The notes: a model not told the origin generated them from the sequence alone. Counted from the stretch's first letter, positions 52,896 through 60,533 are shown. The stretch: DNA of 64,000 nt from an uncultured Candidatus Saccharibacteria bacterium (GCA_964355085.1 CAYHBW010000001.1:4693-68692); one strand, 5' to 3'. Translations and numbers: made by a program.

Positions 52896-53846
52896 TCAAT
52901 GATTTTTCCTGGCAAAAATCAAAATTACTCCGCTGCTTCCGGCCAGCATTTCAAGCAAGAACATCGTGCAGGCAAATGGAAAAATAACCGGCATAAAAAA
53001 GATACCTGTCATAGAATCTAAGGGGTGTTCGAAAAATAATTCCCTTGCGGATATCTTTTTATTCATTACACCAAACAGAAGATTCTTCCTCGTCGAAATC
53101 AGATTCAGCGCACTTTGAAGCCAACCAAAAAATCCGTAAATGTAGCTCCCTCCGAAAACAGATATGTCGGTAAATCCGACCACCGTCATCATGTCGACTA
53201 AGCCGGCCGGAGAAAAATGAAATGTATGGCGCGGCACATCCAAATGAAACCAATTATCCGAAAATAACCGTGATTGCCAGGAAAGAAAATTAGGGATTTC
53301 CAAAACCACATATCCGCCCGATCGAAGCACGTCATGCGCCTTTTTTAAATACCCAAGCGGATCAGTGAAATGCTCCAAAGAATGCCACATCGTCACCACG
53401 TCAAAAGATCTTCCGGGTAGTTCCATGGACGGAAAATCACCTCGAAGGACAAATGTTTCTGAATCGGGATCAAAATGATTTATCGGAGCTATTTCAATAC
53501 CGGAAGCATCCCAACCTAACCGGCGCATTCCCATAAAAAACTTCCCGTTACCGGAACCGACATCTAATAAAGTCCGGTTATCGCCAGGATTTATCAGTCT
53601 TAGGATATCAGCTCTCCGAAAGTGATTTATTATATCATCCGTAAAAGATTTCCGACTTCCATAATATGCCTCGCTATAATATCCGGCCAAATCCTTTGCA
53701 GAAACTTCAGTGGCTCCTGATCCGCAATTTTCACATTTATATATGGTAAATTTTTCTCCGGAAATATAATCGCGCGCGTATAAAAAATCTGCCAAACGAC
53801 CGCGACCGCAAACGGCGCAATTCTTATATCCAATCATGCTGATCAT
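52896..53846 (-). CDS. class I SAM-dependent methyltransferase with N-terminal zinc ribbon
   Basis: CAVCG...CENCG ribbon, LLDVGSGNGKFFMGMRRLGW motif I and VVTMWHSLEHF. Confidence 0.75.
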   Translation of the reverse strand: MISMIGYKNCAVCGRGRLADFLYARDYISGEKFTIYKCENCGSGATEVSAKDLAGYYSEAYYGSRKSFTDDIINHFRRADILRLINPGDNRTLLDVGSGNGKFFMGMRRLGWDASGIEIAPINHFDPDSETFVLRGDFPSMELPGRSFDVVTMWHSLEHFTDPLGYLKKAHDVLRSGGYVVLEIPNFLSWQSRLFSDNWFHLDVPRHTFHFSPAGLVDMMTVVGFTDISVFGGSYIYGFFGWLQSALNLISTRKNLLFGVMNKKISARELFFEHPLDSMTGIFFMPVIFPFACTMFLLEMLAGSSGVILIFARKNH

Positions 53847-55294
53847 TTCCGTATTCTATGAATTTCATATCCGTCAACAGAGGAAAATACCTCATAAGAA
53901 TCAGGGATTTCCGCCACAATACCGTCTACGAGTCCATCTTGAGAAAATATCAATATTTCCGGACGGATTCCTGAAGAGATAAAATCTCCGCCTATCGGCG
54001 GCAATCCCGTCAAATAAGCGTGGAGATATCTGTCCTTGGAATCTATCAGGGATGCCAAACCGATGGAATTCAGGACTCCGACTGATTTCCCTGGAAATTC
54101 CCGGTTTACAAAATCCGCCGCTTTAATTATCGAATCGGATGCGTAGATATTGGAAAAAAATAAAAACTGGAAAGTCTGCGCCATTGCCAGAATACAGACA
54201 ATAAACATGCATACCCTCCGAGAAATCTGATTATTTAAATTAATACGCCTAAATAATCTCGAGAATATCAAATCTAGACTCTCCGGAAGAACCAGTAATG
54301 CCATAAGTTCTGCGATCAGCAAGTACCTTAACCAGCCGGGACTGCGAAGATAGTATGCAAAGGCAAATACGCCGTATGCAATTATGAAATTACAAACCGA
54401 TTTGATGGACGGATTATAAGAAAAATATCTGCAAAGAATGACTAGAAAATACAGAACTCCTAAATAAAGCATCGTACTGGAATCAAGTAGTCCGTATAAA
54501 TTGGCTATGATATTGCCTTGCATGTCCGCAGAAGCATACGGATTCCGGTAAAAATTTAAAATATCAGACCATATATTCGCAGAAAACGGACTCCCAACTG
54601 CTAAAAAAATCCACATTAAAATCGGCGGTAAAATTCCAGTTCCACCGGCAACTATCTTCCTGACCCTGTTCCGGTTTTTATCCAGTAAGACAGAGATAAG
54701 GAATGCGGGGCCAGCAAGTAAAAATACCGATGGCTTTGTGACCATGGCCAATCCCAGAAAAATACCGGATAAGAAATTGAAATCCTTTAAAATTCCCAAA
54801 TACAAACTTGTCAATAAAAAAATAAAACCGGGGATTTCACCTACTGCCGTCCTTCCACTGCCATGAAATGACGCGAATGTCGCTACCAAAATAACCGATA
54901 ATAAAGCTTTATCTTCTCCGAACAGACTCCTGCAAAATAAAAAGATTGCAGATAAAGCCGACAACATAACCAGAAGCATCACCACCCTCTCTACAGCGAC
55001 AGAATATCCGAATATCCTGAAAACACCGGAAAGTAAGGTCGTAAGCGGATATCCTGAAGATTGCAACATATGGCCGAAACCCGAGAATCTGCCGGGAGCG
55101 ACCTGGATATCCAACACTCCATATTCTGTAAAATTCCGCGCCAGCTCAATCGTCACGCCTTCATCCACCCAGAATCTCGGCTTTACTGTAAGATTCTTCA
55201 ATGAATAAAAAAAGGTCGTCAATAAGATCAGAGCAAAAAGCGTATATACCAATCCTTTTTTAAGAAAAACGTTGAACTTTTCGGAATTGCTCAT
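53843..55294 (-). CDS. GT-C fold membrane glycosyltransferase (GT39/GT83, PMT/ArnT-like)
   Basis: 483 aa, about 11 TM helices. The first periplasmic loop carries the DE acidic motif (RFWVDEGVTIELARN) typical of polyprenyl-phosphate-sugar-dependent GT-C enzymes. Confidence 0.65.
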   Translation of the reverse strand: MSNSEKFNVFLKKGLVYTLFALILLTTFFYSLKNLTVKPRFWVDEGVTIELARNFTEYGVLDIQVAPGRFSGFGHMLQSSGYPLTTLLSGVFRIFGYSVAVERVVMLLVMLSALSAIFLFCRSLFGEDKALLSVILVATFASFHGSGRTAVGEIPGFIFLLTSLYLGILKDFNFLSGIFLGLAMVTKPSVFLLAGPAFLISVLLDKNRNRVRKIVAGGTGILPPILMWIFLAVGSPFSANIWSDILNFYRNPYASADMQGNIIANLYGLLDSSTMLYLGVLYFLVILCRYFSYNPSIKSVCNFIIAYGVFAFAYYLRSPGWLRYLLIAELMALLVLPESLDLIFSRLFRRINLNNQISRRVCMFIVCILAMAQTFQFLFFSNIYASDSIIKAADFVNREFPGKSVGVLNSIGLASLIDSKDRYLHAYLTGLPPIGGDFISSGIRPEILIFSQDGLVDGIVAEIPDSYEVFSSVDGYEIHRIRK

Positions 55295-56015
55295 AATTCA
55301 TTATTCCCAACATAAAAAGCAAGTACCTGAACAATACGAATAATATCTCAAATCCGTATTTCGCGCTGCTTAAGAATCCGATCATCGAAGCTTCCGGAAA
55401 ATAACGCGTGGTGATCGGTATCTCATTTATCTTGGCTCCCGCTATCTTCAGCTGGACAAGGATTTCAGTATCAAAAACAAAATCATCAGAATTGAGTTCC
55501 AAGGGCAGGCTCATGGCTCTCCGGCTATAAGCGCGGAAACCGGAATGATATTCGCTTAAATTCATGCCAAGAACCAGATTTTCCAATTTAGTGAGGAAAA
55601 TATTGGCGATAAATTTCCAATAAGGCATCCCGCCCTTAAGGGCATTTTGCGGAATTTTCATCCTTGATCCGATTACGGCGTCGCACTCTCCTTTTGCGAC
55701 CGGGATGATCAATTCCGGTATGAAAGAAGGATTATATTGAAAATCCGGATGGACCATGACAGCGATATCAGCACCTAATTTCAAAGCCTCTTTGTAACAG
55801 GTCTTTTGATTGCCTCCGTAACCGCGGTTTTTCGGATGAACGAATACCTTGAGACCGAGCTGGGAGGCGACTTCAACCGTGTCATCCTTACTGGCATCAT
55901 CAACTAAAATAATATCGTCCACTACATCTTTGGGAATCGCGTCTAAAGTTATTTTCAAGGTTTTAGCGGCATTATATGCCGGCAATACCACAATGACCTT
56001 TTTATTATTTATCAT
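55260..56015 (-). CDS. GT2 polyprenyl-phosphate sugar synthase (Dpm1/ArnC/GtrB-like)
   Basis: 251 aa, soluble. VIVVLPAYNAAKTL...ILVDDASKDDT...DAD. Confidence 0.75.
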   Translation of the reverse strand: MINNKKVIVVLPAYNAAKTLKITLDAIPKDVVDDIILVDDASKDDTVEVASQLGLKVFVHPKNRGYGGNQKTCYKEALKLGADIAVMVHPDFQYNPSFIPELIIPVAKGECDAVIGSRMKIPQNALKGGMPYWKFIANIFLTKLENLVLGMNLSEYHSGFRAYSRRAMSLPLELNSDDFVFDTEILVQLKIAGAKINEIPITTRYFPEASMIGFLSSAKYGFEILFVLFRYLLFMLGIMNYEQFRKVQRFS

Positions 56016-59771: not shown

Positions 59772-59777
59772 AAAAAA

Positions 59778-60533
59778 TTATTTCCTGTAATATCCGATAA
59801 ACCATTTCCGATAAAAAATGGATAAAACAACTCTAAGGGACTCGAAAACGTCTTCAATGGAGCTTTTCGACTCCCCGCCTTCCCTCTCCAGGAATTTTAT
59901 CGGAACTTCCTTTATCCTGGCTCCATTGACGAACATCTCATACAGAAGATGGATCTTGTATGCATGCCGGAGGGAAAGTATCCTGTCGGCATCCAGCGGC
60001 AATCTGTCATAAAATCCGGAAACTCTGGTAAGTTTGAGACCGGAAGTATTGTCATTTGTCGGAAGCATGAGAATTATCTTCGCGAACAGACTTCCGAACC
60101 GGCTCAACAGCTTCCTATGCCAACCCCAGCGGACGGGAATCTTCCCTCCCTCCACATACCGCGAACCTATCACGTAGTCATATCCTTCATCAAATTCGGC
60201 GACGAGGCGTTTTATGTCTCTCGGATCATGCTGGAAATCCCCATCAAACTCGATAAAAGCCCCCGCTCCCAGCTTTTCAACCGCATATTTCATCCCGTCG
60301 ATATAAGCCATGCCGAGTCCGCGCTTTTCCTTTTCCGAATACAGATTCACGTTGCCGAATTCGTCGGATTTTTTCCTGATGATTTCCGCGGTGCCGTCAG
60401 TTGAATTGCCGTCAACTATGAGGATTTCCATCTGATGGCCATTGATAAGACCGAATTCGGCCTCAAGGGCGTCAATCAATCCTCCGATTGACTTGGATTC
60501 ATTATATGTCGGAATAATCGTTATTATTTTCAT
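59778..60533 (-). CDS. GT2 polyprenyl-phosphate sugar synthase (Dpm1-like)
   Basis: IITIIPTYNESKSIGGLI...ILIVDGNSTDGT...EFDGDFQHDP. Confidence 0.75.
   Translation of the reverse strand: MKIITIIPTYNESKSIGGLIDALEAEFGLINGHQMEILIVDGNSTDGTAEIIRKKSDEFGNVNLYSEKEKRGLGMAYIDGMKYAVEKLGAGAFIEFDGDFQHDPRDIKRLVAEFDEGYDYVIGSRYVEGGKIPVRWGWHRKLLSRFGSLFAKIILMLPTNDNTSGLKLTRVSGFYDRLPLDADRILSLRHAYKIHLLYEMFVNGARIKEVPIKFLEREGGESKSSIEDVFESLRVVLSIFYRKWFIGYYRK

Follow-up and report, generated by a model that had tools for sequence, protein, structure and literature searches.

The 64,000-nucleotide stretch of DNA that we analysed (hereafter the window), from an uncultured Candidatus Saccharibacteria bacterium, contains between positions 53843 and 60533 six genes that likely encode three parallel multi-component transmembrane glycosylation pathways of a Parcubacteria-type bacterium of the Candidate Phyla Radiation (CPR). 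We letter the genes A to F. Three of them encode short synthases of glycosyltransferase family 2 (GT2): GT2_B (55260-56015), GT2_C (56025-56720) and GT2_F (59778-60533), all on the minus strand. The others encode polytopic membrane transferases of the GT-C type: GTC_A (53843-55294, minus), GTC_D (56764-58419, plus) and GTC_E (58416-59771, minus). An earlier note on this DNA had located the same six open reading frames (ORFs), all of which we recovered at the same coordinates, and had proposed that such synthase/transferase pairs glycosylate acceptors outside the cytoplasm from lipid-linked monosaccharides. This core reading is borne out by our analysis because of the subfamily of the GT2 enzymes, the fold of the GT-C enzymes, the acidic residue in their first outer loop, the conserved synteny and the presence of GtrA in the clusters of relatives.

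The GT2 proteins (251, 231 and 251 aa for B, C and F) are Dpm1-like polyprenyl-phosphate-sugar synthases, the type that had been proposed for them. Each matches the GT-A catalytic domain PF00535 (E-values of 1e-22 for GT2_B, 5e-39 for GT2_C and 4.5e-26 for GT2_F). When PDB sequences are searched, the dolichyl-phosphate mannose synthase of Pyrococcus furiosus (DPMS, 5mlz) ranks first for all three, with E-values of 3e-10 for GT2_B (residues 4-203), 3e-19 for GT2_C and 1.5e-23 for GT2_F (residues 1-239), in alignments of 200-239 residues that span the entire catalytic domain. ArnC is the second match for GT2_C (1.5e-17) and GT2_F and a weak eighth for GT2_B, and GtrB (5ekp) also matches GT2_C (E-value 3e-10). 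The top NCBIfam matches, all partial, are exclusively with polyprenyl-phosphate-sugar synthases (AglJ, PpgS, the haloarchaeal dolichyl-phosphate-hexose transferase, ArnC and PgfS), those of GT2_B being AglJ and PpgS and the best one of GT2_F being PgfS; none of the three proteins reaches an equivalog cut-off. We also checked whether they group with polymer-elongating GT2 enzymes; they do not, and the Dpm1-like assignment holds. The fourth GT2 enzyme of the window (42471-43508) resembles them across its N-terminal 50-100 residues only.

Sequence identity among the three synthases is 25-30% over some 217-244 residues, and the families differ in the active-site signature that each of them conserves, made of the metal-binding motif and the Gln or Glu that follows it. 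The signature is DADLEY in 50 of 54 members of the C family (DADLE motif), DGDxQH in all 13 members of the F family (DGDFQ) and HPDxQY in 12 of 13 members of the B family, where a variant HPDFQ stands in place of the DxD motif. Because the synthases are such distant paralogues, each with a conserved signature of its own, it is plausible that they handle three different sugars. They had all been described as soluble, which fits GT2_C and GT2_F, where we find no transmembrane (TM) helix, but not GT2_B, which ends in one hydrophobic, TM-like helix (residues 221-239). GtrB, for its part, has two C-terminal TM helices. Several relatives of the locus (L004, L009, L011, L014, L016 and L075) encode a fourth Dpm1-like GT2 paralogue that is missing from the window; it has about 237-241 aa where complete, scores 110-137 bits against GT2_F and is placed in several loci on the opposite strand from the adjoining E, C or D gene.

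The membrane proteins GTC_A (483 aa), GTC_D (551 aa) and GTC_E (451 aa) have homologues that are named 'glycosyltransferase family 39 protein' in public records. GTC_A (34.2 bits, E-value 3.7e-8) and GTC_E (43.6 bits, E-value 4.7e-11) match PMT_2 (PF13231) above its gathering score of 26.1 bits, and precomputed data show that most homologues of GTC_D carry this domain. Searches of PDB sequences with the GT-C proteins, as single sequences or as profiles, returned nothing useful (ArnT appears with the A-family profile at an E-value of 0.45), and fold comparison alone worked. AlphaFold2 models built on the family alignments are confident (predicted local distance difference test, pLDDT, of 93.2 for GTC_E and 94.9 for GTC_D), and in these models both proteins have the GT-C membrane fold. 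The top Foldseek matches of the GTC_D model are ALG12, STT3, ALG9, ArnT, AftD, PglB and Pmt4; the structural matches of the GTC_E model include PimE and ALG enzymes. GTC_D ends in an alpha/beta domain of some 150 aa on the outer side; GTC_E is all-membrane, without a soluble domain. The three families align with one another by hhalign: A (18 orthologues) with E at a probability of 95.9% (E-value 6e-9), A with D at 96.9% (1.7e-10, 360 columns) and D with E at 97.3% (2.5e-11), which indicates that GTC_A is homologous to the other two families. Family alignments were needed for such comparisons, those of the E-family profile with the single sequences of GTC_A, GTC_D or a 587-aa protein described below being insensitive.

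All three GT-C proteins start with a basic N-terminus, predicted to lie inside, followed by TM1 and a conserved acidic position, and the acidic residues of this first outer loop (loop 1) superimpose in the profile comparisons. A D-E or D-D motif had been attributed to the loop 1 of every GT-C protein. This is correct for GTC_A, with D44-E45 immediately past TM1, and for GTC_D, with D42-D43-E44; the D-E pair (D44 and E45, D43 and E44) is invariant in the two families, 18 orthologues being compared for A. It is incorrect for GTC_E, whose loop reads V-D41-A-R-A-Y45-D46: D41 and Y45 are invariant in this family, D46 nearly so, and position 42 is a nearly invariant Ala. The E family is also the most widespread of the three GT-C families, with 83 clusters at an E-value of 1e-30 or below among 1.84 billion representatives. 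The PMT model PF02366 does not follow the motif: GTC_E, lacking the loop-1 Glu, scores exactly at its 22.7-bit cut-off, and GTC_A and GTC_D have no match though they carry the D-E pair.

Other assignments of these proteins were considered and rejected. An oligosaccharyltransferase of the STT3/AglB/PglB type can be set aside, as the WWD (WWDxG) motif is absent from GTC_A, GTC_D and GTC_E and the last has no soluble domain. The YfhO family (PF09586) gives no match at an E-value of 0.01 or below for any of them, and the likeness to ArnT (GT83) remains at the level of the fold, the three proteins matching no NCBIfam family.

The description of the system as triple is an undercount, because the locus holds at least four PMT_2 GT-C genes. 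A further one lies on the minus strand about 1.3-2.9 kb beyond position 64000 (L081:1294-2967). Its product of 557 aa has the sequence ILGDEAAQ after TM1; the gene follows one more gene of glycosyltransferase family 4 (GT4) and is preceded by that of a TPR protein, and we saw no Dpm1-like GT2 gene beside it on that contig. Within the window, positions 39837-41600 (minus) encode a polytopic membrane protein of 587 aa without Pfam match, adjoining a polysaccharide deacetylase (41605-42348, minus). It has an invariant D47 in the sequence NDEDQY immediately past TM1; its named homologues come from metagenome-assembled genomes (MAGs) of Patescibacteria/CPR, the majority of its matches being unnamed, and some relatives of 807-818 aa are fused to a polysaccharide deacetylase. 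Comparison with the D and A families by hhalign gives only 74% and 55%, and this protein may be a fifth, divergent GT-C-like enzyme.

The pairing of synthases and transferases was studied in 77 loci with a homologue of GTC_E, taken from species-representative genomes of nearly exclusively Patescibacteria, with at least three Anaerolineales and two genomes labelled Gammaproteobacteria. Each of their ORFs was assigned to the window protein that it matches best, with score thresholds of our own choice, so that the counts, which rest on E-anchored loci, are indicative. A is beside B in seven of the 17 orthologous loci, with B directly upstream, and beside C in two. D is beside F in 11 of 23 loci, with F directly after D, and beside C in a single one; E is beside C in 22 of 76 and beside F in one. 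The single D-C and E-F cases (L027 and L020) show the arrangement of the window itself, and the D protein of L027 is very close to GTC_D (668 bits). Four loci (L009, L013, L016 and L045) contain all six genes in the order D-F, E and then C-B-A. In another group (e.g., L072) C-E-D-F are co-directional, with overlaps at two of the three junctions, and in L072 gtrA follows this operon. When other genes separate E from C, they often encode an RmlA-like nucleotidyltransferase and an epimerase/dehydratase. C-E is the most widespread and the most conserved pair. The pairing exceeds what is expected by chance, as it persists in relatives with GT-C proteins that share no more than 25-57% identity with those of the window. 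From these adjacency counts and from the gene order in relatives, the evolutionary units are therefore B-A, C-E and F-D.

The claim that each GT2 gene adjoins a GT-C gene is thus physically true in the window, but the adjacent C-D and F-E are not the conserved partners, which are C-E and F-D. The comparison indicates that GTC_D, inverted relative to its neighbours, was moved between E and C by a local rearrangement, and it is this inversion and placement that created the F-E and C-D adjacencies. We found no inverted repeats flanking D that could account for the inversion. A 24-nucleotide inverted repeat, 88% complementary, links 57646-57669 in D and 58554-58577 in E; it encodes similar MAVFA peptides (MAVFAVIG in D and MAVFAGLG in E) and may be due to chance or be a trace of exchange between the paralogues. 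The start of A lies within B, with which it shares 35 nt, and the end of A overlaps the following methyltransferase gene by 4 nt. F stops 6 nt short of E; D and E are convergent and overlap by 4 nt; C and D are divergent and separated by a spacer of 43 bp. The start of D in the NCBI gene call (P0121, 551 aa) is at 56764, in agreement with the earlier note, and the public gene call of E (P0001) begins two codons downstream of the start of our ORF. A scan of the window for promoters and terminators gave counts that do not exceed those in shuffled sequence, and the one sigma-70-like site in the C/D spacer was not relied on. Rfam and tRNA scans of the window gave no matches. Contigs obtained from groundwater at Hainich (well H52, 0.1-µm fraction) encode proteins identical to GTC_E and GTC_D, and the closest relatives are in MAGs of Niyogibacteria, Harrisonbacteria and other Parcubacteria/Paceibacteria, which places the window in a CPR/Patescibacteria genome.

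The B-A unit seems to have a third member. A membrane-anchored S-adenosylmethionine (SAM) methyltransferase with a Zn-ribbon N-terminus and a hydrophobic C-terminus (52896-53846, minus; Methyltransf_23 E-value 9e-23) is encoded directly after A in the window; an orthologue, 44% identical, occupies the same place in L013. The B-type GT2 of L045 (538 aa) is itself fused to a Methyltransf_23 domain, 27% identical to the window methyltransferase, and similar fusions may exist in L015 and L035, whose B-type proteins have 547 aa. The conserved order of A and the methyltransferase, together with the L045 fusion, suggests that this protein forms a trio with GT2_B and GTC_A and that the sugar of the pair is methylated at the membrane.

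Systems of this kind are expected to include a flippase, and the earlier note had pointed to a GtrA-like protein. None is present in the window, where a TM scan of ORFs, Pfam and tblastn detected no GtrA (PF04138), SMR or LAB_N protein; tblastn was run with GtrA and LAB_N proteins of CPR. The hydropathy scan of ORFs of at least 60 aa showed no small multi-TM protein except the product of a 108-aa, two-helix ORF (151-477) without family match, and the gaps between genes do not exceed 305 bp, the first 530 bases, which hold this ORF, aside. PF04138 GtrA genes do sit within the clusters of D and E orthologues in other CPR genomes. The order is E-like, D-like, GT2 and, further on, GT2 and GtrA in the P0166 locus, and three GT4 genes, D-like, AsnB, GT47 and GtrA, with no F gene, in L082. 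By tblastn, GtrA is found in ten of the 77 E-anchored loci (L003-L079), besides the source locus L082 and its duplicate L083. These genes support a three-component logic for the families. In the window, a Wzx/MOP-family flippase (9995-11455, plus; Polysacc_synt E-value 2e-31, with MatE and MurJ matches) is a candidate carrier of polyprenyl-phosphate-sugars, or of the undecaprenyl-pyrophosphate repeat unit only, and an ABC exporter that fuses the transmembrane and nucleotide-binding domains (15525-17324, minus; ABC_membrane and ABC_tran) is an alternative candidate. Flippases of the Wzx and MATE types are known from such systems (PMC8035078, PMC11127046). The gene of the flippase probably lies elsewhere in the genome, or else the Wzx protein or the ABC exporter takes its role. 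In L002 (Niyogibacteria), a LAB_N (PF07578) membrane protein of 98 aa (20584-20880) is encoded directly upstream of another PMT_2 GT-C gene, and such a protein might act instead as the small flippase, or as a partner, in some CPR genomes; the window has no homologue of it.

By homology, each pathway would start at the cytoplasmic face, where GT2_B (HPDxQ), GT2_C (DADLE) and GT2_F (DGDxQ) would each move one monosaccharide from a nucleotide sugar to polyprenyl (undecaprenyl) phosphate. The lipid-phosphate-sugar would then be flipped, by a GtrA-type protein like those encoded in the clusters of relatives or, for what the window itself offers, by the Wzx protein or the ABC exporter. Finally, the cognate GT-C enzyme would use the invariant Asp, observed in the first outer loop of the fold, to pass the sugar to an acceptor outside the membrane. 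GT2_B would serve GTC_A and the membrane methyltransferase, probably with a methylated sugar, GT2_C would serve GTC_E, and GT2_F would serve GTC_D. A number of points weigh against this scheme. F and D, and C and E, are not immediately adjacent in the window, and their partnership rests on other genomes and on thresholds that we chose ourselves. The PMT_2 match of GTC_D (21.3 bits, E-value 3e-4) is under the gathering score, and GTC_E has a lone Asp (D41-A42), without the second acidic residue. GT2_C and GT2_F have no membrane anchor that would bring them to the lipid, and GtrA, SMR and LAB_N are missing from the window. Nor are we aware of a member of these families with a known enzyme activity, lipid intermediate or glycan.

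As the most likely acceptor we favour the glycopolymer that the Wzx/Wzy-type and GT4 genes of this 60-kb island produce, which would receive side chains or be extended, because a complete Wzx/Wzy-type pathway and many GT4 enzymes are encoded there and because there is a precedent: PMT_2-type GT-C enzymes of monoderms act mostly on wall polymers (PMC8035078). The same three steps could serve another end if the GT4 enzymes built a cytoplasmic lipid-linked primer that the three GT-C enzymes extend outside into a lipoglycan or wall glycan, as PimA and PimB' are followed in mycobacteria by PimE, MptB and MptA with Ppm1; only the acceptor and the processivity would differ. Five GT4 genes flank the pairs and are interleaved with them in a conserved order in relatives, GTC_E lacks an acceptor-binding outer domain, as do PimE and the ALG enzymes, and its pair with GT2_C is the most widespread and conserved. 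However, the likeness to PimE and the Mpt enzymes is limited to the shared fold, the complete Wzx/Wzy-type pathway in the island could supply the acceptor polymer, and the sequences carry no signal on processivity. We regard this main-chain assembly as quite unlikely.

The second candidate acceptors are Ser/Thr-rich surface proteins. At least one pair might O-glycosylate extracytoplasmic proteins such as those encoded at 12446-13159 or 11535-12425 (both minus; secreted or anchored), as Ppm1/PMT do in actinobacteria and PgfS/PgfM1 or GtrB/PgtC2 in streptococci. The window does encode a membrane-anchored protein with G-x-L-T-V-T-G-like repeats and 29.5% of Ser and Thr, and a PG_binding_1 protein with 22.6%. 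PgfS is the top NCBIfam match of GT2_F, GTC_E attains the PF02366 gathering score, GTC_A and GTC_D have the PMT-like D-E motif, and protein targets of such pairs are documented in monoderms (PMC12041528). Yet PgfM1 and PgtC2 belong to the YfhO family, which the three GT-C enzymes do not match, these enzymes match no NCBIfam model at all, and Gram-positive PMT_2 enzymes are mostly directed at polymers (PMC8035078). Furthermore, the Ser/Thr-rich genes are 40 kb away and lie beside that of a Wzy_C protein (13271-15499, minus; O-antigen ligase/polymerase-like, with TPR repeats at its C-terminus), which could be a PglL-type O-oligosaccharyltransferase with these proteins as its own substrates. Protein O-glycosylation by the pairs appears unlikely, though it is an alternative to be taken seriously, and decoration or extension of the island's polymer is the reading that we prefer. 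It is very improbable that the GT2 enzymes act like AglJ in haloarchaeal N-glycosylation, initiating oligosaccharides linked to polyprenyl monophosphate that GT4 enzymes extend and the GT-C enzymes transfer en bloc as oligosaccharyltransferases. One may also imagine, as a highly doubtful speculation, that in this Parcubacteria lineage the TM-less synthases dock on their cognate GT-C enzymes (their overlapping genes being probably coupled in translation) and dispense with a dedicated GtrA-type flippase, the GT-C enzyme or Wzx flipping the lipid, and that the product is a CPR-specific coat, possibly with O-glycosylated Ser/Thr-rich proteins, for attachment to host cells.

The closest precedents are the 'multi-component transmembrane glycosylation systems' of Gram-positive bacteria. 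Lactococcus lactis has three pairs (csdAB, csdCD and csdEF) that share one flippase, CflA, and decorate rhamnan, pellicle polysaccharide and lipoteichoic acid; Bacillus subtilis has three pairs as well (PMC8035078). The lactococcal system resembles ours in having three parallel GT2 and GT-C pairs in one monoderm, with adjacent genes in each pair and two of the three GT-C enzymes (CsdD and CsdF) of PMT_2 type; its single GtrA-type flippase is encoded away from the pairs. In contrast, the lactococcal pairs are scattered, whereas here three lie within 7 kb in a conserved module that contains GT4 genes, and the GT-A enzymes of such systems are described as membrane-linked (PMC8035078), whereas GT2_C and GT2_F have no TM helix. 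The likeness that we observe is one of arrangement. In Streptococcus pyogenes, where GacI, GacJ, GacK and GacL add N-acetylglucosamine side chains to the group A carbohydrate, the TM-less synthase GacI is combined with a flippase of Wzx type and a GT-C enzyme of PMT_2 type (PMC8035078), which is the component set of the window; unlike there, the window has no GacJ-like small 3-TM activator, and the relatives of the present system have GtrA.

The mycobacterial PpgS (Rv3631)/Rv3779, Ppm1/PMT, PimE and Mpt systems (PMC3485146) are similar in that short TM-less Dpm1-like synthases feed GT-C enzymes. All three synthases have PpgS among their leading NCBIfam matches, at 56-71 bits against an equivalog cut-off of 370, and the mix of GT4, GT2 and GT-C enzymes recalls the pathway of phosphatidylinositol mannosides and lipomannan. 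The GtrA-GtrB-Gtr(type) systems of Shigella and Salmonella and the three-component systems of Citrobacter (PMC11127046) follow the same logic of synthase, flippase and GT-C enzyme, and their GtrB matches GT2_C, but the Gtr(type) enzymes are not PMT_2 and the window lacks gtrA. ArnC/ArnT, which modify lipid A with 4-amino-4-deoxy-arabinose (Ara4N), differ: there is no NCBIfam ArnT match, ArnC scores are below 70 bits for a cut-off of 529, and we saw no lipid A genes in the window. The streptococcal PgfS/PgfM1 and GtrB/PgtC2 (PMC12041528, PMC5856776) also combine a Dpm1-like synthase with a GT-C enzyme that acts outside, and the present island has genes for Ser/Thr-rich surface proteins; the streptococcal GT-C enzymes are of the YfhO family where ours are PMT_2-like, and the Ser/Thr-rich genes are far from the pairs.

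The genomes of Patescibacteria (CPR) are tiny, and these bacteria are presumed to live attached to other cells; hardly any work has been done on the chemistry of their surface. The glycosylation processes of Saccharibacteria were called 'unexplored' in a recent study (bioRxiv 10.1101/2024.11.25.624915), and no paper on GT2/GT-C pairs of CPR bacteria came up in our searches of the literature. The scheme does not depart in kind from the known Gram-positive and mycobacterial systems. What is particular here is the CPR setting, the presence of three pairs in 7 kb in a GT4-rich module, the link with a methyltransferase and the single-Asp loop 1 in the most widespread GT-C family. The order of the module of about 10 kb that comprises the three pairs and GT4 enzymes is conserved across several Parcubacteria lineages, which implies that the extracytoplasmic addition of sugars is an important part of their envelope. 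Since the mechanism is already established in Gram-positives and mycobacteria, the value of this result lies in annotation and targeting, not in a new principle: the corrected partners (B-A-methyltransferase, C-E and F-D) are concrete units that can be tested separately. The locus is of moderate interest for the biology of the CPR envelope.

Nearly the whole window is a glycan island, with at least eight enzymes of the GT4 family and a number of aminotransferases, oxidoreductases and methyltransferases. Three GT4 genes (60537-63965, minus; Glycos_transf_1 E-values of 1e-31, 6e-19 and 2e-43) lie upstream of F in the same direction, and two more (50668-52865, minus; 5e-16 and 1e-15) lie downstream of the methyltransferase. 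A run of three GT4 genes also precedes D-F in L009 and L058, and a D homologue without F in L082, which suggests that the three upstream genes belong to the conserved module. The island further encodes a Bac_transf phosphoglycosyltransferase (8655-9995) and a predicted nonulosonic-acid pathway of pseudaminic/legionaminic type (30906-34188 and 18418-19110, both minus), composed of a PseB-like Polysacc_synt_2 dehydratase (33208-34188), a DegT aminotransferase (32056-33192), a NeuB synthase (30906-32042) and a CMP-type cytidylyltransferase (18418-19110); the ORF at 19100-20122 has a weak polysialyltransferase-like match.

Methyltransferases are unusually frequent in the island. One is the C-terminal SAM methyltransferase domain of a 613-aa GT4 fusion (37991-39832, minus), and others are encoded at 27852-28679, 29899-30795 and 49048-49674, besides the one of the B-A unit. 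At 34420-37180 (plus), the gene of a thiamine-diphosphate (TPP) enzyme with all three TPP domains overlaps that of an NAD-dependent sugar epimerase/dehydratase, an unusual pairing in a glycan cluster that possibly serves a branched or modified sugar. A secreted protein of 1580 aa (531-5273, minus) is a candidate for a large surface or host-interaction protein; it carries three lamin-tail (LTD) domains and, at its N-terminus, a region with weak similarity to Zn-phospholipase C. Finally, an ORF of the KduI/IolB family (27093-27836, minus) overlaps the 5' part of a short-chain dehydrogenase/reductase (SDR) ORF (26384-27367, minus) whose SDR domain begins around residue 150; the SDR gene probably starts later, which would leave a KduI-KduD-like pair beside a GH57 protein.

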